The notes under the pieces: generated by a model | The model's input: the letters and a program-made list of their open reading frames with translations, nothing else | Told to the model about the DNA's origin: nothing | The model's database searches: none | Shown: piece by piece, positions 2,907 through 42,114 of the stretch | How positions within the stretch are numbered: position 1 is the first letter of the stretch | How the letters are laid out: each line of letters begins with the position of its first letter | Made by a program: the position numbers and the translations under genes | Origin: Candidatus Poribacteria bacterium | GTDB lineage: Bacteria; Poribacteria; WGA-4E; WGA-3G | Direction: 5' to 3' | NCBI GenBank assembly: GCA_022821725.1 | Contig: JAJEDB010000018.1 | Span: forward strand, 30,467 to 94,466 | DNA: 64,000 nucleotides

Positions 2907-2976
2907 GACATAGCACTCCGCTGGAGTGCAGCTTAATGACACTCAATATTCTATAGACATATCGCTCCGCTGGAGC
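2907..2976 (-). repeat. Two units of hairpin + ATATGTCTATAGAA family (inverted orientation)
   Basis: The reverse complement reads GCTCCAGCGGAGC-GATATGTCTATAGAAT and GCACTCCAGCGGAGTGC-TATGTC. Same family as 3181-3259 and 9516-9595. Confidence 0.8.
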
Positions 2977-3180
2977 AAGGAGACCGATTTTTTAGACTAC
3001 CACTTTCAAATCTTGCATGTATATTAGGGCTTACACATTTCCTCTTAAAGTCCCCTTGATAAGGGGGATTTAGGGGGTTAGATAAGACGAAATAACGAGT
3101 TTTGAGCGAAATATATTCTTTTTTTGTTCAATTTGCGTAAGTTCTGTATGTGTTTATGCGTCTGTTGGATGCTCCCTCCT

Positions 3181-7103: not shown

Positions 7104-7418
7104 TTAGAGGTTTAGCCATTGACGCACAGCATCTTCAACTGTGGATAATTGCGCAGGCTGAAGATTTCCCAATTTTCTCAAGAACTTTGCTTCTGATACT
7201 GTGACCAAACTTTGTGCATCGAAAACACCGGTATCCAGAAATCTCGTTTTTATAGGGATTTCAAATCTTGAACCACGCGCGCTCGTTGTATGCGTGACAA
7301 CGGTGACGAGCGCGCGATCTTGGAGACGAGCAGAGATGCTAATGACGAGGCAAGGTCTGACCTTGGCTACCATTCCGAGATCAACTAACCAGACTTCCCC
7401 TCGATTTTGCTTCGGCAT
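7104..7418 (-). CDS. PemK/MazF-family type II toxin
   Basis: MPKQNRGEVWLVDLGMVAKVRPCLVISI..VTVVTHTTSARGSRFEIPI. I start it at the internal ATG (7418), which has a GGAG upstream, rather than at the longest ORF start (7463). Confidence 0.8.
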   Translation of the reverse strand: MPKQNRGEVWLVDLGMVAKVRPCLVISISARLQDRALVTVVTHTTSARGSRFEIPIKTRFLDTGVFDAQSLVTVSEAKFLRKLGNLQPAQLSTVEDAVRQWLNL

Positions 7419-7602
7419 CCTCTGTCTCCATTTTGTCGTGTTCAGCGAAAAGTGCGTCAGCAATTTCCGTGAGTGCCTCGTCTGTCAAGGGTGGAATCTC
7501 CAGCAAAGCTACTTGCTTTATGATTTCAGAGGCGATCGCATGTTTTTCAATCTCAGGAAGTTGATTGAATGCTTCTAATATGTTCTGTGAGGTTGCATGC
7601 AT
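7381..7602 (-). CDS. Putative antitoxin (small acidic protein upstream of and overlapping the MazF-like gene)
   Basis: ATG at 7602 has GGAGG 6 nt upstream; the ORF-track start at 7629 is TTG. The gene overlaps the toxin start by 38 nt. I do not recognise a MazE/AbrB motif. Confidence 0.55.
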   Translation of the reverse strand: MHATSQNILEAFNQLPEIEKHAIASEIIKQVALLEIPPLTDEALTEIADALFAEHDKMETEDAEAKSRGSLVS

Positions 7603-7622
7603 CCGGGACCTCCATAAATCCG

Positions 7623-8678
7623 CTACCAATCCTCATCAAAGAACGGCGTGCTTGGGTAGCTATAGACTCCGCCTTCATAGTTGCGGAGTTGGATTTCGTC
7701 GTCATCAAAGGCGACAACCGGATTAGGAATCAGCGCAATCTTCCCACCGCCACCAGGGGCATCCACGACGTAATGCGGCACACCCAGCCCAGAGATATGC
7801 CCACGCAACGCCGCAACGATGTCTAAGCCTGCTTGGACGGCTGTCCGGAAATGATCCGTCCCGACGACAAGATCCGCTTGATAGATATAGTAGGGCTTAA
7901 CGCGGATACGCAACAATCCTTTCATCAGTTCCACCATCACATCGGGATCGTCATTCACACCTTTCAGGAGCACAGTCTGGTTACCGAGCGGTATACCCGC
8001 ATCGGCTAACATCCCGCACGCCTTCTCGGTTTCCGGTGTAATCTCGCGCGGATGGTTGAAATGGGTGTTGATATAGAACGGGTGATGCCGTTTCAAGATC
8101 GCACACAATTCCGGTGTGATACGTTGCGGCAGCGTTACGGGGACGCGCGAACCGATCCGAATGATTTCCAGATGTTTAATCGCTCGGAGTCCCCCGACGA
8201 TCAGGTCAATCTTTTTATCCGTCAACATGAGCGGGTCGCCACCGGAGATGATGACATCCCGGATCTCTGGATGCGCCTGAATATAAGCAAGTCCTGTCTC
8301 AATGTTATCTTCGGAGATGGAGTGTGGGTCCCCGACTTTCCGTTTCCGAGTGCAGAAACGGCAATAGATGGGACACATGTAATTGACATAGAAAAGTGCC
8401 CGATCGGGGTAGCGATGTGTTACGTTTGGCACTTCGCTATCGTCTTCTTCGTGCAGTGGGTCCTCTACCCCGGTACTTATCAATTCTCTTGGATCAGGAA
8501 CGACCTGTTTCCAAATCGGATCACCGGGTTCTTCTATGAGACTCAGGTAATAAGGATTGATACGGATTGGGAACTCTTTGTGAATCCGCTGCATCTCCGC
8601 TAAGTCAACGTCAAATGCAGCAGCGAGTTTTTCTGGAGTGTTGACAGTATCTCTGACGAGTCGTTTCCATTCTTCCAT
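7623..8678 (-). CDS. KamA-family radical SAM protein (lysine 2,3-aminomutase-like)
   Basis: 351 aa. CPIYCRFCTRKRK (CxxxCxxC cluster), ISGGDPL, and YYIYQADLVVGTDHFR. Confidence 0.9.
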   Translation of the reverse strand: MEEWKRLVRDTVNTPEKLAAAFDVDLAEMQRIHKEFPIRINPYYLSLIEEPGDPIWKQVVPDPRELISTGVEDPLHEEDDSEVPNVTHRYPDRALFYVNYMCPIYCRFCTRKRKVGDPHSISEDNIETGLAYIQAHPEIRDVIISGGDPLMLTDKKIDLIVGGLRAIKHLEIIRIGSRVPVTLPQRITPELCAILKRHHPFYINTHFNHPREITPETEKACGMLADAGIPLGNQTVLLKGVNDDPDVMVELMKGLLRIRVKPYYIYQADLVVGTDHFRTAVQAGLDIVAALRGHISGLGVPHYVVDAPGGGGKIALIPNPVVAFDDDEIQLRNYEGGVYSYPSTPFFDEDW

Positions 8679-9419: not shown

Positions 9420-9448
9420 TTGACACTGCCGGTTGGACATGGTATTCT
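9420..9448 (+). promoter_or_regulatory. Sigma70-like promoter TTGACA-N17-TATTCT
   Basis: Read directly. It lies about 170 nt upstream of the disA-like gene. Confidence 0.4.
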
Positions 9449-9482: not shown

Positions 9483-9515
9483 GAAGATTTCAAAGAGATC
9501 TTTCAGGGGCTTCCT

Positions 9516-9595
9516 CACCCCAGAGGGGTGATATGTCTATAGAAAACGGCGTATTTAACCCCTGCACTCCAGCGGAGTGCTATGTCTATAGATAA
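9516..9595 (+). repeat. Two units of hairpin + ATATGTCTATAGAAAA family
   Basis: CACCCC-AGA-GGGGTG + ATATGTCTATAGAAAA, then GCACTCC-AGC-GGAGTGC + TATGTCTATAGATAA. Confidence 0.85.
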
Positions 9596-9629
9596 GTGGC
9601 AGCTTAGGTTAATGTAGGAGGTGGTTGCA

Positions 9630-10370
9630 GTGCAAAGCATCTCAACGGAAAATCAAAAAACACGCAAACTCTTTGCGGCACTGAAGTTGCTATCGCCGGG
9701 GACCTGTCTCAGGGAAGGTATGGATTATATCATCCAGAGTAAGACCGGTGGGCTCGTCGTTTTGGGGGATACGCCAGAAATTCTGGATCTGACAGAAGGC
9801 GGCTTCCGAATTAATTGCCCCTATACACCGACAGCCTTATATGAGTTGTCGAAGATGGACGGCGCGATTATCCTTTCTGAAGATATAAAACGCATCGTAC
9901 GTGCGAATGTAACGTTGAGAACCAGCCCGACGATACCCTCTAATGAAACCGGACTCCGCCACCGCTCTGCAGATAAATTCGCAAGACAAACTGAACACAG
10001 TGTCCTCGCCGTATCACGAAGTCGCAATACGCTCACCCTGTATCTCAAAGATCAACGCTATACTTTCCGAGAACGTCCTACACTGCTGGCGGGGGCGAAT
10101 CAAACGATGCTCGTGCTGACGCAGCATCTCAAAGCCCTGCAAAATGCCGTTGCCATTCTGAATTGGGCTGAATTAAGTGGAAACGTCACCTTAACCGAGG
10201 TCGTCTCGGCTATCCAATTGTGTGAGCGCGTTCGCCGCGCTGAGCAGGAATTGGACCGTTACAGGATCGAGTTAGGCACACAGGCGCAATCTCTACAGTC
10301 TGTTATTCCCGAACTCACAACTGAAATTGAGAGTGGACTTCTAATTATAAAAGACTACTATCGTCAGTGA
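9630..10370 (+). CDS. disA: DisA-like diadenylate cyclase (DAC domain plus part of the helical linker; C-terminal HhH region missing)
   Basis: LSPGTCLREGMDYI, LYELSKMDGAIILSEDIKRIVRANV and NETGLRHRSADKFARQT match DisA DAC motifs. I use GTG 9630, which is 9 nt after GGAG; the ORF-track start at 9621 abuts the SD. The protein ends at ..LLIIKDYYRQ, about 95 aa short of canonical DisA. Confidence 0.8.
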   Translation: MQSISTENQKTRKLFAALKLLSPGTCLREGMDYIIQSKTGGLVVLGDTPEILDLTEGGFRINCPYTPTALYELSKMDGAIILSEDIKRIVRANVTLRTSPTIPSNETGLRHRSADKFARQTEHSVLAVSRSRNTLTLYLKDQRYTFRERPTLLAGANQTMLVLTQHLKALQNAVAILNWAELSGNVTLTEVVSAIQLCERVRRAEQELDRYRIELGTQAQSLQSVIPELTTEIESGLLIIKDYYRQ

Positions 10371-10564
10371 CCCAACCCTAAAGGGTTGGGCTTCTGCGAA
10401 GCGCATACCAAGCGTCCACTCCAGAAGTTAAACCATTGACTACCGTAATATATCGCATATCTATGGCGTGGTAGCCCGCACAATGTATCGGATACTCCCC
10501 TCGTCTGATACCGCTTGGATATGTGATCGGGAAGGGGCAATATATACTCGAAAGAGGTTTATGC
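10371..10564 (+). ncRNA. Candidate omega-RNA (HEARO-type) scaffold of the IsrB-like nuclease
   Basis: A 194-nt ORF-free stretch immediately 5' of the nuclease ORF. It begins with the perfect hairpin CCCAACCC-TAAA-GGGTTGGG, then GCTTC-TGC-GAAGC. Position and orientation match where IscB/IsrB omega-RNAs are encoded. No covariance-model search was run. Confidence 0.45.
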
Positions 10565-11587
10565 ATGTTAGTACCAGTCGTAGATAAAAATCAAACCCCT
10601 CTCATGCCTACGAAACCCTCACGGGCAAGGCGTTGGATGCAATCTGGTAAAGCCACACCTTTTTGGAAGAATGGTATTTTCTGTGTCCGCCTCAACATTG
10701 ACCCTTCAGATACCGAACTCCAAGAGATAGCCATAGGTGTAGACCCCGGTAGTAAGAAAGAGGGCTTTACAGTGAAGTCGGAATCTCACACCTATCTCAA
10801 CGTTCAGGCAGATGCCCACAACAAAGTCGGTAAGAAGGTTGAAAAGAGACGAGAACTTCGCAGAGGAAGACGTTCGCGAAAAAGTCCAAATAGAAAGAAC
10901 AGAACGAACCGCCTTGTGAATAAAGAACGCATCCCTGCTGGCACCCGCGCAAGATGGAACTGGAAGCTGCGTATCCTTGAGTGGTTCTCGAAACTCTATC
11001 CGATCACACACGTCTGTGTTGAGGACATCAAAGCGCGGACGAGAGAACGCGCAAGGCGTTGGAATCAGTCGTTTAGTCCTTTGGAAGTCGGTAAGCAGTG
11101 GTTCTACACTGAAATAGAAAGACGTTGGAAACTGCTAACGCTACAAGGCTGGGAAACCAAAGAGATACGCGACAGGCTTGGACTCAAGAAGTCGTCAAAG
11201 AAACTATCAGAGACGTTTGATGCCCATTGTGTGGATAGTTGGTGCTTAGCGTATCATACCGTTGGCGGTTCTGATATACCAGATCATACAGATATATTCT
11301 GTATATCACCAATCCCAATCCGCAGACGTGAACTTCACAGGCAGAACCCACAGAAAGGCGGGAAAAGACCTCGCTACGGTGGCACAACTTGGAATGGGTT
11401 GGTAAAGAATACACTCGTTAGACACGTGAAGCATGGGCTCACCCGTATTAGTGGCTTTGGTAAAATAGGTATCTCACTCTATTCATTAGAGGGAAAACGC
11501 CTGTGTCAAAACGCTAAAACAGACGATTTTAGAGTGCTAACACGCCTGAACTTTAACTATAGAAGCGGGCATTCTTCCCAAGCATAA
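10565..11587 (+). CDS. isrB: IsrB-like OMEGA nuclease (PLMP domain + split RuvC + Arg-rich bridge helix, no HNH insert)
   Basis: 340 aa from ATG 10565, with AGAGG 8 nt upstream. Motifs: NQTPLMPTKPSRARRW; IAIGVDPGSKKEG (RuvC-I); RRELRRGRRSRKSPNRKNRTNR (RRXRR); HVCVEDIKAR (RuvC-II); FDAHCVDSWCLA (RuvC-III). There is no Cys/His HNH block between RuvC-II and RuvC-III. Confidence 0.8.
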   Translation: MLVPVVDKNQTPLMPTKPSRARRWMQSGKATPFWKNGIFCVRLNIDPSDTELQEIAIGVDPGSKKEGFTVKSESHTYLNVQADAHNKVGKKVEKRRELRRGRRSRKSPNRKNRTNRLVNKERIPAGTRARWNWKLRILEWFSKLYPITHVCVEDIKARTRERARRWNQSFSPLEVGKQWFYTEIERRWKLLTLQGWETKEIRDRLGLKKSSKKLSETFDAHCVDSWCLAYHTVGGSDIPDHTDIFCISPIPIRRRELHRQNPQKGGKRPRYGGTTWNGLVKNTLVRHVKHGLTRISGFGKIGISLYSLEGKRLCQNAKTDDFRVLTRLNFNYRSGHSSQA

Positions 11588-11633
11588 ATACTTGGGTTTC
11601 CTGCCCGAAGATCAGATGAAAAGGAGTTAGAAA

Positions 11634-12962
11634 ATGAAACGGTTCATCACTTTAGCACAGAGAGGGAATGTAACACCCAGTGGGATTTTATTCATTGGGA
11701 TGCTTTTTGTTTCCTTCGGTTTAGTCGGATGTGGCGGAAAACTCGGAAAAATAGAACCATCAGCAGTGGATACGGCAATCGCCGACGCAGAGATGGCGCT
11801 CGCGGCCGCAGGAGACGTTGATGCACCGACACTCGCATCGGATCTGTTTGCGGCTGCAGAAACGAACCTTGAAGCTGCAAAAACGGCACGCGACGAGAAA
11901 AAGGGCAACGCTGCCCTCCGCCTCGCGTATCAAGCGATCGCTGATGCCGCGCTGGCTCGAACGAATTCCATGAATGTCACGAAAAACTCGGAATTGAATG
12001 CGTCTATACTCCAGAAAGAGACGGAAGCAGAATCACTTCGCGCGACTGTTAACAGTAAAGCAGAAGAACTCGCAGGACTTCACGCCGAGATGCAAGACAT
12101 TCAGAGCGAGCACACGCAATTGAAACAGACCGTTCGCGCCCTCCAAAAAGAGAATCGTGAGTTAGGTGATACACGGGAAGCCTATGGTGAACAGGTCGCA
12201 CAACTCTCTGACACTTTAGAGGAGATTCAGGGGCGCGCTCGGAGGGCGGAAACGAATATTCGTAACTATGGGAGAGAGGTCGCCGAACTCCGTCGGAAAC
12301 TTGAAGTTGCTGACAGGCGGGTGCAAGAGGAAGGGCATCAGAAACGGGCAGTTATCGCTGAGATAGATTCCCTTAAGAGACAACTCCGCGAACAGGCGGA
12401 AATCTATACCGAGAAACTCGCAGAAGCCAACCAGCAAAATGCGGGTGAAGAGCATGCGGAATATCTCAAACAGAAAGCACAAGAGGCGCGGGCGTATGTT
12501 GACAGCCAACCTCCCGTCCATCCTGTCAAGACAGGGCGTGTTTCCCTCTCCGCAGAACAGATTGCAGCCGGTAAGATGGTGCTTGGTAATTGGGAACGCG
12601 CATGGCATGCGAACGACCTCAATGGACATCTCGCTTATTATGAACCTAATATTATTGCCGATAAAGTCGTGATTCACGAGAGTAAAGAACATCGAAGTAA
12701 AATCGATCTCCAGCAACTCAAGGCAGATCTTCATCAGATGCGCACCCACACGTGGAACAAAGCGAAAGCCGATACCGAAGTCGAAGGAGAAAGCGTTATC
12801 GGTATCCAGCGACTGACCCGGTTGGCGATGCCTGCAGCGGATGAGAACGCGACGGAACTCTACAATATCTGGATCCGCGAAATCTGGATGCATCAAGTGG
12901 GGAACGACTGGAGAATTCATCACGAAATCTGGCAAGTCTATGAAAACGTACCAAATTTTTAA
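11634..12962 (+). CDS. Lipoprotein with long coiled-coil and C-terminal NTF2/SnoaL-like domain (function unknown)
   Basis: Signal peptide and lipobox (FVSFGLVGC). A heptad-rich middle section is followed by a C-terminal W..AW...DL..HLAYY..N module. AAGGAG lies before the ATG. Confidence 0.6.
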   Translation: MKRFITLAQRGNVTPSGILFIGMLFVSFGLVGCGGKLGKIEPSAVDTAIADAEMALAAAGDVDAPTLASDLFAAAETNLEAAKTARDEKKGNAALRLAYQAIADAALARTNSMNVTKNSELNASILQKETEAESLRATVNSKAEELAGLHAEMQDIQSEHTQLKQTVRALQKENRELGDTREAYGEQVAQLSDTLEEIQGRARRAETNIRNYGREVAELRRKLEVADRRVQEEGHQKRAVIAEIDSLKRQLREQAEIYTEKLAEANQQNAGEEHAEYLKQKAQEARAYVDSQPPVHPVKTGRVSLSAEQIAAGKMVLGNWERAWHANDLNGHLAYYEPNIIADKVVIHESKEHRSKIDLQQLKADLHQMRTHTWNKAKADTEVEGESVIGIQRLTRLAMPAADENATELYNIWIREIWMHQVGNDWRIHHEIWQVYENVPNF

Positions 12963-38940: not shown

Positions 38941-39093
38941 TAGGACTTACGCAGTTATCCCGTTTTTATGCTGTTTTTGGTTCGTAGTAGCGCAATTTTG
39001 CGGTGTACTCACCCAAATGCGACGTGCATTATTGCGCATTCTTCGGGAATATTGCCTCAATTTTGGCATAGAAGCCAATTTTGCGTAAGTCCT
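38941..39093. mobile_element. MITE-like element (TAGGACTTACGCA / TGCGTAAGTCCT)
   Basis: Near-identical to 19743-19890 over both arms. It accounts for the spurious N-terminal extension of ORF 38968. Confidence 0.85.
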
Positions 39094-39117
39094 GATATAG
39101 ATACGGAGGTTAAAATA

Positions 39118-42114
39118 TTGGATGCGACCCGAATACCAGACGTAGTTTTACGTCCTGGCGAAAAACTGCACGGCTTTGAAGTAAAAGCCGTCACACCCAT
39201 CGACGAATTGCGAGCCGTAACGATTGAATTAGCACATCAACACAGCGGTGCACGTTTACTGCATCTCTACACAAACGACACAGAGAATCTCTTCTCCATC
39301 AATTTTCCGACCCCACCCTCAGACGATACAGGTGTCCCACACATTCTTGAGCACGCCGTTTTAGCCGGCTCACAGAAGTATCCGGTGAAAGAACCTTTTT
39401 TTGAAATGATTAAGATGAGCATGGCAACCTTTATCAATGCCATGACAAGCTCAGATCATACCTACTACCCCGTAGCGAGCAATGTGAAAAAAGATCTCTT
39501 CAACTTAGCGGAAGTCTACTTCGATGCCGTATTCCATCCGCTTCTCACGCAGGAGACCTTCAAACGCGAAGGGCACCATCTCGCACCTGCCGATCCCGAA
39601 GATCCCACGGGCGATTTGAAGATAACGGGTATCGTCTATAATGAGATGAAAGGGGTCTTCTCGGATCCAGAATCACTGTTGTATCGAGCAATGACAAGTC
39701 GGCTCCTGCCTGATACGCTCTATGCATGTGAGTCTGGTGGAGATCCTGATGCCATTCCGGATTTGACGTATGAGCAGCTGAAAAAATTCCACGAAACCTA
39801 TTATCATCCGAGTAACAGTTACTTCTTCCTCTACGGTGATATTCCCACAAACGACTACCTCTCCTTTCTTGCGGATAAGTTGGATAAGATTCCGACAAAC
39901 GAGGAGAGTGCCGCCTTACGGCCCCTCAGTCCAGAAGTCACCCGTCAGCAGCAGTGGAAATCACCACAAGTTGTGATTGACACCTATCCCGTTGGCGCAG
40001 ATGAACCGCTGGCAGAGAAGACGTATCTAATGCTGAGTTGGTTCATCGGAGATGCGACAGATCCTGAAGAGATTGTTTTGGGGCGCATTTTAAGTCTCAT
40101 CCTTCTCGGCAATGAAGCCGCACCGCTCCGAAAAGCGATTATCGATTCCAAACTCGGCGCAGATCTCGTCTATTCGGGTGCCGGTTCTATCGGGGCTGCA
40201 GCCACTTTTTACCTCCTCCTCAAAGGAAGTGAAACCGATCGCGTCGAAGCGTTTACCCAACTCGTCATTGATACCCTCACACAGGTTGCGGATTCAGAGA
40301 TTGAGAGTGAGAAGGTGGAAGCAGCGTTCCAGCAAGCAACCTATCACTACCAAGAGGTCGCCTCCATGTTCCCGCTCCGCATGCTCCAACGTGTGATTGA
40401 GGGATGGATATATGAGAAGGATTCAAACACCTTCCTGAAAATGGGGGAAACCCTCGCCGATATCCATCAGCAGTGGCAGGAAAATCCAGCGATTTTCAAT
40501 GAACTCATCCGTAAACGGCTGATTGAAAATCCGCATCGCTTGACAAGCGTGCTATCGCCAGATAGAGACAAACAGGCGGAAACCGACGCTGAACTCGTCG
40601 AACGGATGAAAGAGATACGGGCACAATTCACGGATGAACAGGTGAAACATATCGCCGCAGATGCCGCTGAACTCGAACGTCTCAACGCACAACCCAATTC
40701 ACCCGAAGCATTGGCGAAACTCCCACAACTTCAGGTCAGCGATCTACCCGAAAAACCGAGACATATCCCGACAACCGTGGAGAACGTTGAAGGACGCACC
40801 CTTCTCCACAACGATGTCTTTGCCAATGGTGTTAACTATTTCGTGCTAAACTTCGATTTGCAAGGATTGCCGGAGCATCTTTGGACCTATCTGCCGAGAT
40901 ACACCGACGCTATTAGCAAACTCGGTGCTGCCGATATGGACTACGCCGAGATAGCACATCGGACATCCGCAGTTACCGGTGGGATTGGATGTTCACCCGG
41001 ATTCAGCACACACGCCCTTCACCCCAGCCGTTCCTTGCAAAACATGCGTTTTCATCTCAAGGCACTTGATGGCAAAATAGATGCTGCGCTTGACGTGCTT
41101 CATGACCTCATTTTTGCTGTGAACCCGCGCGACACCGAACGCCTGCGTGATGTCTTGGTTCAGGCTGTTGCCGAATACCGGACAGAGATGATTCAGGATG
41201 GATTGAATACAGCGATTCATCACGCCTCGCGCGGTCTATCACCAGAATCCCATATCTCAGAGATGGTTTTTGGGCTTCCGCAACTCCACAACACCGAAAC
41301 GTTCCTCGACAATTTTGACGAACTTAACACCGACTTAATATGTCATATAGAAGCGATTCGGGACTTCTTACTGACCCGTGGACGCGTGACCGCGAGTTTC
41401 ACCGGTTCCGACACCGCTTTTGAGACGACACGCACCAAACTCGGTGAATGGCTCAATACGATGCGTGATGAACCGATTCCGTCAGAATCTGTTGCGTTTC
41501 AACCCTTTGAGACACCGCCGAGAGAAGGATTGGCCGGTCCTATTCAGATTGCCTACTGTGCGCACGTGATCCCGGCACCGCATTATTCACATCCCGACTC
41601 AACGTTGCTCAGTATCGGCGCACATATTTTGCGATTGGATTACATCATGAGTGAGATCCGCTTTAAAGGCAACGCTTACGGGGCATATTTCACCTATAGT
41701 CCGTTTGATGCACAACTGTATCAAGCCTCATATCGCGATCCGCATGTCGCACGGACGCTCAACGTCTTTGAACAGGCAGCCGACTACGTTAAACAGGTGG
41801 AATGGACACAGACGGACATTGATCGAGCGATTATCGCGACCGCGAAAACTGCTGAGAAACCGATCCGTCCGAGCCAAGCCGCAAGTGATGCCCTGAGCCA
41901 ATACCTTGTAGGACAGACACGTGAGATGCGGGAGGATCGTTACGCACAACTCCGACGTGCCACCCCTACTGAGGTAAAACGGGCACTCCTCCAACTCTTG
42001 GAGGGAAATCGAGATAAAGCCGCGGTGTGTGTCGTTTCAAGTCGTGAAAAACTGGAAGCAGCGAATCGTGAATTGGCACAACCGCTTATCATTGAGGACA
42101 TTGTCGCCTCTTAG
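39118..42114 (+). CDS. M16-family (insulinase/PreP-like) zinc metallopeptidase
   Basis: Inverted zinc motif GVPHILEHAVLAGS (HxxEH). About 1000 aa, like PreP. I use TTG 39118, which is 9 nt after GGAGG; the upstream ORF part is MITE sequence. Confidence 0.85.
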   Translation: MDATRIPDVVLRPGEKLHGFEVKAVTPIDELRAVTIELAHQHSGARLLHLYTNDTENLFSINFPTPPSDDTGVPHILEHAVLAGSQKYPVKEPFFEMIKMSMATFINAMTSSDHTYYPVASNVKKDLFNLAEVYFDAVFHPLLTQETFKREGHHLAPADPEDPTGDLKITGIVYNEMKGVFSDPESLLYRAMTSRLLPDTLYACESGGDPDAIPDLTYEQLKKFHETYYHPSNSYFFLYGDIPTNDYLSFLADKLDKIPTNEESAALRPLSPEVTRQQQWKSPQVVIDTYPVGADEPLAEKTYLMLSWFIGDATDPEEIVLGRILSLILLGNEAAPLRKAIIDSKLGADLVYSGAGSIGAAATFYLLLKGSETDRVEAFTQLVIDTLTQVADSEIESEKVEAAFQQATYHYQEVASMFPLRMLQRVIEGWIYEKDSNTFLKMGETLADIHQQWQENPAIFNELIRKRLIENPHRLTSVLSPDRDKQAETDAELVERMKEIRAQFTDEQVKHIAADAAELERLNAQPNSPEALAKLPQLQVSDLPEKPRHIPTTVENVEGRTLLHNDVFANGVNYFVLNFDLQGLPEHLWTYLPRYTDAISKLGAADMDYAEIAHRTSAVTGGIGCSPGFSTHALHPSRSLQNMRFHLKALDGKIDAALDVLHDLIFAVNPRDTERLRDVLVQAVAEYRTEMIQDGLNTAIHHASRGLSPESHISEMVFGLPQLHNTETFLDNFDELNTDLICHIEAIRDFLLTRGRVTASFTGSDTAFETTRTKLGEWLNTMRDEPIPSESVAFQPFETPPREGLAGPIQIAYCAHVIPAPHYSHPDSTLLSIGAHILRLDYIMSEIRFKGNAYGAYFTYSPFDAQLYQASYRDPHVARTLNVFEQAADYVKQVEWTQTDIDRAIIATAKTAEKPIRPSQAASDALSQYLVGQTREMREDRYAQLRRATPTEVKRALLQLLEGNRDKAAVCVVSSREKLEAANRELAQPLIIEDIVAS

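Follow-up and report, generated by a model that had tools for sequence, protein, structure and literature searches.

The 64-kb window analysed here (64,000 nucleotides of contig JAJEDB010000018.1, Candidatus Poribacteria bacterium) carries on its plus strand, at 10363-11615, what is very probably (at a probability of about 0.9) an intact, non-autonomous ISC1-type element of the IS200/IS605 superfamily, whose only cargo is isrB and its omega-RNA. IsrB is an RNA-guided DNA nickase and an HNH-less relative of the nuclease IscB. The element interrupts disA, and all positions below are those of the window unless a locus is named. The features are as follows.

9621-10362, plus strand: remnant of disA, the gene of the DNA-integrity-scanning diadenylate cyclase, cut after codon 247; the co-oriented upstream host gene
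10343-10362, plus strand: predicted guide, AATTATAAAAGACTACTATC, 20 nt of host DNA directly 5′ of the scaffold
10363-11615, plus strand: whole mobile element, 1,253 bp, with ends taken from about 80 paralogues and from the empty allele L081
10363-10564, plus strand: omega-RNA scaffold, 202 nt, directly 5′ of isrB
10565-11587, plus strand: isrB, 340 aa, with a PLMP motif, a split RuvC, an arginine-rich bridge helix, no HNH, and a C-terminal domain interacting with the target-adjacent motif (TAM), the TI domain
11566-11607, no strand assigned: nested subterminal hairpin at the isrB-distal end (outer helix 11566-71 x 11602-07, inner helix 11577-82 x 11591-96)
11616-11619, plus strand: target motif ATGA, the predicted TAM; host DNA outside the element, homology to the empty allele restarting at 11616

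A preliminary description, made from the letters alone, had recognised IsrB in the 340-aa open reading frame (ORF) by an ordered set of motifs, and each of them lies where it had been placed: the PLMP segment NQTPLMPTKPSRARRW at residues 9-24, RuvC-I (IGVDPGSKKEG) at 57-67, the bridge helix RRELRRGRRSRKSPNRKNR at 95-113, RuvC-II (CVEDIKAR) at 151-158 and RuvC-III (DAHCVDSW) at 219-226. The Pfam scan returned RRXRR alone (residues 3-158, E 3.5e-33). No HNH family was matched in the Pfam or NCBIfam scans of the isrB product, and the NCBIfam IscB model covered the N-terminal half only, with a score under its cut-off. The closest solved structure was that of DtIsrB from Desulfovirgula thermocuniculi (8DMB; E 9.6e-37, residues 3-280), with the VDPG, EDV and H..D motifs in register; IscB structures aligned solely with the N-terminal 120-165 residues (E 1e-7 to 1e-12).

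The four catalytic residues expected of RuvC, D60, E153, H221 and D224, show no variation in 48 close homologues and align with the VDPG, TEDV and HANDA motifs of DtIsrB, as the preliminary description had anticipated. E153 and H221 are separated by a 67-residue linker, whose counterpart by alignment is the HNH-linker of DtIsrB. In a 62-sequence alignment that included DtIsrB itself (P0241) and its clade, E159 of DtIsrB corresponds to E153, the phosphate-lock residue N265 to N261, R323 to R312 and Q326 to Q315; the PLMP prolines P17/P20 correspond to P12/P15 and the bridge-helix arginines R100/R104 to R95/R99. In DtIsrB, R323 reads the G and Q326 the A of the NTGA TAM (Hirano et al., 2022, PMC9581776), so that the conserved R312 and Q315 suit a TAM with G in its third and A in its fourth position. 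From the conserved residues and the conserved NTGA flank described below, the protein is predicted to nick the non-target strand beside the TAM under RNA guidance.

A sequence-only search of the PDB with the last 90 residues did not align the TI domain. An AlphaFold2 model, computed from an alignment with DtIsrB-clade sequences, had a mean predicted local distance difference test score (pLDDT) of 80 and a predicted template-modelling score (pTM) of 0.81, with pLDDT values of about 83-90 over residues 281-330; an earlier run on 48 sequences of 79-87% identity gave a pLDDT of 52 and was discarded. Foldseek ranked DtIsrB (8dmb_P) first (E 9e-25; template-modelling scores, TM, of 0.76/0.79 over 342 columns), in a superposition that takes in the TI domain. 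The target-normalised TM, 0.79 for DtIsrB, was 0.38-0.61 for HNH-bearing full IscB chains, except for HfmIscB (9k2z_A), which reached 0.73 over that chain's 262 residues. The best match to IsrB, the lower TM of IscB chains and the lack of HNH identify the protein as IsrB and not IscB, in agreement with the first assignment.

A threshold of E<=1e-10 admits 3,242 relatives of this protein. The nearest are labelled, for example, 'RRXRR domain-containing protein [Candidatus Poribacteria bacterium]', which is how standard annotation had been expected to label the gene. A scan with one genome per species gave 359 relatives, of which the best 80 are all in Poribacteria; these serve below as the related loci (L001-L080), and at least 11 of them come from a single chromosome. 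The ORF is intact in 79 of the 80 related copies, and the median ratio of nonsynonymous to synonymous substitution rates (dN/dS) against the window copy is 0.08, which places isrB under strong purifying selection. Against the copy in L001, which is 99% identical, dN/dS is 0.17.

Directly upstream of isrB lies a conserved RNA structure, which we delineated on an alignment of 47 non-redundant copies (A1, made with MAFFT), with RNAalifold and the published IsrB architecture as guides. In the window copy its stems (S), stem-loops (SL) and pseudoknots are the following.

10363-69 x 10434-40, plus strand: S1, enclosing SL1 and SL2
10371-78 x 10383-90, plus strand: SL1, a perfect 8-bp hairpin, CCCAACCC-TAAA-GGGTTGGG
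10391-96 x 10422-27, plus strand: SL2, with an inner helix 10401-04 x 10412-15
10443-45 x 10528-30, plus strand: S2, which with S3 encloses SL4 and SL5
10452-61 x 10518-27, plus strand: S3
10465-67 x 10474-76, plus strand: SL4
10487-93 x 10503-09, plus strand: SL5
10547-49 x 10554-56, plus strand: SL7, holding the Shine-Dalgarno (SD) sequence AAGAGG at 10552-57, 8 nt ahead of the ATG
10406-10473, plus strand: adaptor pseudoknot, pairing the SL2 loop 10406-10410 (UACCA) with the SL4 loop 10469-10473 (UGGUA)
10497-10537, plus strand: nexus pseudoknot, pairing the SL5 loop 10497-10501 (CCCCU) with the S2-SL7 linker 10533-10537 (AGGGG)

Over the 47 sequences, 86.4% of the cells in the 11 helices (61 pairs) are paired, compared with 32-42% when the partners are slid by 1-3 columns. 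Compensatory changes occur in 35 of the 61 pairs, against 13-18 in the same slid controls. The covariation score reaches 0.297, that of the slid controls no more than 0.074, and none of 500 shuffles reached the observed values. The preliminary description had looked to conserved structure among homologous loci as a test of its proposal, and such structure exists. The fold of 10345-10600 also beats all 200 shuffles (z = -3.69). Outside SL1, G·U cells outnumber A·C cells by about 6:1 (298 vs 52) and include invariant U·G pairs, and this excess assigns the fold to the RNA of the plus strand. SL1 is nearly pure Watson-Crick and has no G·U bias, as expected for a DNA hairpin.

Each pseudoknot contains one clearly covarying pair; the remaining pairs are invariant and uninformative. 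In the adaptor pseudoknot one pair is G-C in 23 and A-U in 20 sequences, the others being kept at 85-96%. In the nexus pseudoknot 98.7% of cells are paired, and the closing pair is A-U in 30 and U-A in 14 sequences. All pseudoknot pairs are intact in the window copy. S4 is inseparable from S3, the two forming one continuous helix of 10-11 bp. SL7 is the weakest helix, 63% paired in the MAFFT register, which blurs both SL7 and distal S3; its stem varies between copies as CUC/GAG, CCC/GGG and CUCC/GGAG. In its pseudoknot partners, and in lacking SL3, SL6 and SL8, the RNA agrees with 'group A' of Hirano et al., and most closely with its subgroup A2.

A covariance model (CM) built from A1, R1, scores 220 bits on the window copy, full-length hits in the related loci scoring about 175-239. 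Among the 80 related loci R1 finds a full RNA directly 5′ of isrB in 77 and nowhere else; in L059 the hit is partial at a contig end, in L035 about the last 90 nt are found, and L050 gives no hit. The proposal of an omega-RNA 5′ of the ORF thus stands, with a conserved and covarying structure, and its start is moved from 10371 to 10363 (GTCA). The perfect hairpin noted at 10371-10390 is present. It is SL1 of the guide-adaptor region and at the same time a transposon-end DNA hairpin, and a hairpin of this type is dispensable for nicking (Hirano et al., 2022, PMC9581776). The 194 nt described as free of ORFs are the distance from the disA stop to the isrB ATG; they hold mechanical ORFs only, two on the minus strand and an extension of isrB to GTG-10523. 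GTG-10523 was rejected as the isrB start because the paralogues keep ATG-10565 and the SD in SL7.

In most paralogues a possible hairpin, ACAAAC/GUUUGU, surrounds the isrB start codon (A1 columns about 213-233; window 10558-10585), where the window copy differs in sequence. This hairpin of the paralogues could be an SL8-like element or one of translational control.

The comparison of copies also fixed the ends of the element. Nucleotide similarity between copies sets in sharply at 10363 with GTCA (94-98% conserved) and stops at about 11619 with ATGA (88-97%), and the conserved unit comprises the upstream non-coding region and isrB, nothing else. The 5′ flanks of 78 copies are unrelated up to this abrupt onset, with a mean identity of 0.29. 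Other genomic copies therefore define both the ends, 10363 and 11615, from about 80 paralogues, and a variable guide, the 20-nt flanks being unrelated, as had been foreseen; the originally proposed span of 10355-11620 nearly coincides with these ends plus the ATGA at 11616-11619. The tetramer 3′ of the element is ATGA in 66, GTGA in 8 and another sequence in 7 of 81 copies (ATGA/GTGA, 74/81). The window copy terminates in ...GAAGATCAG, followed by ATGA. Its G+C content is about 47%, that of the window about 49%.

Published ISC1 transposons, whose IscB1 is IsrB, begin with 5′-GTCA, end in CGATGA-3′ and insert at N/ATGA, the slash marking the insertion point (Kapitonov et al., 2016, PMC4810608). 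The present element agrees with them. Subterminal hairpins with (C/A)UAAA(G/U)-type loops, covarying and Watson-Crick, lie at 10371-10390 and 11577-11596, and there are no terminal inverted repeats. Insertion is at N/ATGA, and no target duplication is present at the left junction, the right side being obscured by a 461-bp deletion. The nested 3′ hairpin holds the TAA stop of isrB (11585-87) in its loop and shows compensatory changes in 10 of its 12 pairs. These pairs are nearly all Watson-Crick (G·U vs A·C, 9 vs 15), without plus-strand bias, as expected of a DNA hairpin; this is the probable TnpA-binding end (the left end, LE, on the minus strand).

Searches with blastn and with the CM revealed no additional omega-RNA copies, standing alone or otherwise, in the 64-kb window or in the flanks of 81 loci. 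A possible second IsrB fragment at 39040-39189 (tblastn E 0.048) falls inside a 1,048-aa ORF unlike IsrB and was taken as a chance match; judging by eye from its translation, that ORF is a putative M16-type peptidase.

The insertion point is displayed by a natural allele that lacks the element. The contig L081, which carries the closest DisA orthologue (P0121, 96% identical) and the same downstream genes, matches the window on both sides of the element: L081 102-855 corresponds to 9609-10362 at 96.4% and L081 1317-2101 to 11616-12400 at 94.4%. At its left junction, GATTATAAAAGACTACTATC/ATGAGAATC, the sequence runs uninterrupted as ...CTATC/ATGA. It matches the predicted guide at 19 of 20 positions, with the mismatch at the TAM-distal end, and continues with ATGA, an NTGA TAM. 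The guide was positioned after Hirano et al. (2022) and Meers et al. (2023), with a predicted length of about 20 nt. The suggestion that the disA remnant supplies the guide is thus borne out as to its origin in the host flank; the interval is 10343-10362, because, with the scaffold starting at 10363, the disA ORF runs 8 nt into the element and takes its stop codon from there.

The ORF of the truncated gene, 9621-10370, covers positions 3-240 of 357 of the NCBIfam profile PRK13482 and matches Pfam DAC and part of DisA-linker; Poribacteria DisA orthologues have 366 aa. The left junction lies inside a codon, so the remnant consists of 247 native residues followed by R-Q-stop supplied by the element. 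The truncated protein keeps the DAC domain and most of the linker and has lost the C-terminal helix-hairpin-helix DNA-binding domain. A second genome, L001 (OY764016.1, 99% identical), shows this truncation too, with the same flanks, which indicates stable inheritance.

Truncation of DisA after residue 247 is associated with the loss of 461 bp, L081 856-1316, which comprises the last third of disA and the intergenic spacer and is absent from the window. At the right junction the window reads ATGA/AAAGGAG and L081 ATTA/AAAGGAG. With ATGA at the start and ATTA at the end of the missing segment, the deletion is bounded by a target motif and a near-target motif. Recombination between two copies inserted at both sites and a transposase-mediated adjacent deletion both fit this loss.

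We compared the locus with four known systems. DtIsrB (8DMB; PMC9581776) has the same order of PLMP, RuvC-I, bridge helix, RuvC-II, HNH-linker, RuvC-III and TI, with the catalytic residues and N265/R323/Q326 aligned and the predicted fold superposing at TM 0.76/0.79. Its RNA likewise starts with GUCA (S1) followed by SL1 and SL2, and its SL7 carries the SD. At the 3′ end of its locus a nested hairpin also spans the stop codon and an NTGA motif comes next, the native end being ...GGAAGATC/TTGA, where TTGA is the experimentally determined TAM. The two proteins are only about 31% identical, however, and the DtIsrB scaffold measures 262 nt, whereas that of the window measures 202 nt. The 6 nt separating S2 from S3 in the window are too few for SL3, and the modelled structure contains neither SL6 nor SL8. 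The pseudoknots pair SL2 with SL4 and SL5 with the linker in the window (group A), but SL2 with SL5 and SL4 with the linker in DtIsrB (group B1); the swapped partners are a variant already described as group A. The window host also differs in belonging to a mesophilic Poribacteria lineage.

In element architecture the locus resembles ISC1-1_MA from Microcystis (PMC4810608), which is also non-autonomous and about 1.3 kb long, has a RuvC-only Cas9 homologue as its sole coding content, a 5′-GTCA terminus and subterminal imperfect hairpins, and is inserted at N/ATGA without target duplication. It belongs to another phylum, and the Poribacteria family is much more expanded. IscB with its HEARO RNA (OgeuIscB, 7XHT/7UTN; RF02033) shares a homologous N-terminus of PLMP, RuvC-I and bridge helix and an RNA that is encoded ahead of the ORF and bears its guide at the 5′ end, and weak full-length HEARO matches exist in paralogues; unlike IscB, the window protein has no HNH and is predicted to nick rather than to cleave both strands. 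The donor-joint model of Meers et al. (2023) agrees with the locus in that the scaffold derives from the nuclease-side transposon end, the guide lies beyond the boundary, the TAM equals the transposase target, a co-oriented upstream gene must supply transcription and no TnpA is nearby. That model was shown for the double-strand-cutting IscB and TnpB, whereas the window protein is a predicted nickase. Judged by sequence, the locus has every IsrB/ISC1 property examined except a HEARO score above the Rfam threshold, which the reference IsrB RNA fails as well. It is a well-formed new member of the IsrB/ISC1 family and no new kind of system.

How the element would work can be sketched from these likenesses. 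In the study of Meers et al. (2023; bioRxiv 10.1101/2023.03.14.532601), the IscB scaffold comes from the transposon end, with the guide 5′-adjacent and beyond the boundary; transcription comes from outside, with a bias to co-oriented upstream genes; and most IscB and IsrB genes have no nearby TnpA. A promoter-like site was found at 9420-9448, upstream of disA, and the promoter scan detected none between disA and isrB or the scaffold, so that the co-oriented disA fits this arrangement. Read-through from the disA promoter via the truncated gene would yield an RNA of about 20 nt of host sequence (10343-10362) and the 202-nt scaffold, with the isrB mRNA 3′ of it. IsrB would bind the scaffold, SL7 with its SD included, which could create a feedback on translation. 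The complex would then recognise a guide match followed by NTGA, as present in the 'empty' disA allele or in a donor joint after excision, and nicking of the non-target strand at the empty site would favour re-copying of the element by recombination. Movement itself would depend on a Y1 TnpA, provided in trans, that uses both subterminal DNA hairpins together with the ATGA (TCAT) target.

Five points weigh against reading the locus as an intact mobile IsrB element with its omega-RNA. A simple peel-and-paste insertion fails to explain the 461-bp deletion. No tblastn match to Y1 TnpA was found in the window or the 80 related loci with an approximate IS608 TnpA query, which makes this a weak test. 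The covariation was scored on phylogenetically related paralogues, and the structure was partly derived from the same sequences. The guide length, the RNA ends and the nicking activity are predicted by homology. Finally, the HEARO search proposed in the preliminary description came out negative: RF02033 gave no match on the window copy at E<=10 over 9500-12500 or over 10300-10650, including a 351-nt search.

Concerning the last point, HEARO scored 24.6-28 bits on four of eight paralogues, in each case starting exactly at GTCA, and 56.2 bits on the validated DtIsrB RNA; the gathering score of 83 bits was not reached by any copy tested. The intervals scored were as follows.

L082 2237-2474: DtIsrB locus
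L012 1885-2087
L060 754-961
L065 308-494
L029 426-626

Since the DtIsrB RNA itself remains under the gathering score and the weak paralogue matches lie in the right place, HEARO is insensitive here and its miss does not refute the omega-RNA. IsrB-type omega-RNAs are effectively invisible in standard Rfam annotation. R1, by comparison, hits the DtIsrB locus at L082 2237-2322 (model positions 1-78, E 4e-4), starting 264 nt before the ATG, which is the expected start of the published 262-nt scaffold; the RNA there begins with GUCA...UGAC around an SL1 with a CUGAAG loop.

Among the other explanations, the one that survives best is a domesticated, immobile IsrB locus kept for a host function such as regulation or defence, with no transposase acting. 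The lack of a TnpA match in the element, the window and the 80 loci, even with a weak query, would agree with it, as would the dN/dS of 0.08 and the identical insertion in L001. We nevertheless consider it improbable, given that copies number in the hundreds at unrelated sites, many per genome, and that conservation, with compensatory changes, extends to the target motif and to the TnpA-type hairpins of both ends, which is expected only under selection for transposition. Most IscB and IsrB genes lack a nearby TnpA in any case. Non-autonomy had already been proposed from the missing TnpA, and it holds: none was found in the window, within the limits of the weak tblastn query, and the element leaves no room for tnpA.

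Less probable still is a decaying relic, in which ORF and RNA look intact and no longer work. The rearranged site with its 461-bp deletion and the missing HEARO hit could be taken in this sense. The ORF is full-length, however, and has all catalytic and TAM-reading residues; the RNA, at 220 bits, is within the family range of about 175-239, its pseudoknot pairs are intact, and dN/dS against the 99% identical L001 copy is 0.17. That the upstream structure combines a DNA signal of the transposon end with a normal 5′ leader, with no guide RNA scaffold, agrees with the DNA-like SL1 and 3′ hairpin (Watson-Crick, no G·U bias) and with the threshold reached by no Rfam family, and is nonetheless hardly credible, as 298 G·U vs 52 A·C cells outside SL1 mean helices that form only in plus-strand RNA, the helix order, two pseudoknots and SD-containing SL7 match the solved IsrB omega-RNA family, and the weak paralogue HEARO hits begin exactly at GTCA.

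Several observations concern the family rather than the window copy. We surveyed reconstructed empty sites of related copies (L002-L080; left junctions at about 2795, right junctions at about 4050 in locus coordinates). In 42 of 75 sites an ORF of 80 codons or more begins with the NTG of the TAM. This NTG is start-like in 35 of the 75, where the ORF of 80 or more codons has the same orientation and an in-frame stop lies within 30 codons upstream; among 4,436 random [AG]TGA sites in the same flanks the start-like rate is 4.9%. An SD-like motif lies just 5′ of the left junction in 27 copies. About half of the family is inserted exactly between the ribosome-binding site and the start codon of a host gene; the window copy is not of this type. 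In docked copies the isrB stop lies about 28 nt ahead of the host ATG, which would permit translational coupling.

Docking on start codons may reflect survivorship, as ATGA is ATG+A and the position is harmless and transcribed, or adaptation. That the Poribacteria IsrB family is specialised in docking on host start codons, its target and TAM ATGA being ATG+A, is a tentative idea which we regard as doubtful. No mention of start-codon docking, and no link of Poribacteria with IscB or IsrB, was found in the literature searched. If docking were adaptive, the host promoter would drive guide, scaffold and isrB together, the guide being the host 5′ untranslated region. The host gene would be translated via re-initiation about 28 nt past the isrB stop, and the element would act as an operon-leader parasite or as a regulator of hundreds of host genes.

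Three related copies are irregular. In L016 and L019 (about 4040, 5631) the 3′ end has diverged and the canonical end motif lies 1.6 kb further downstream, and in L035 (1456; 2919-3010) the omega-RNA is reduced to roughly its last 90 nt and a 5′-end-like motif lies 1.5 kb upstream; these copies are probably interrupted by nested insertions. Elsewhere in the window, adjacent 119-aa and 82-aa ORFs on the minus strand (7104-7629), just downstream of a 351-aa ORF (7623-8678, minus strand), form an arrangement resembling toxin-antitoxin pairs by the ORF list alone.

The locus leaves the current understanding of OMEGA systems unchanged. It is a natural IsrB/omega-RNA pair from an uncultivated, sponge-associated phylum, with a compact scaffold of 202 nt (262 nt in the structural reference) and a predicted NTGA TAM, and its natural empty-site allele displays guide, TAM and insertion point together. 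Because HEARO misses this branch of omega-RNAs, standard annotation leaves only an 'RRXRR domain protein' at such sites. The host's DisA loses its C-terminal, DNA-binding third to the insertion. The family, being large and under strong purifying selection, readily offers covariation data and candidates for compact nickases.

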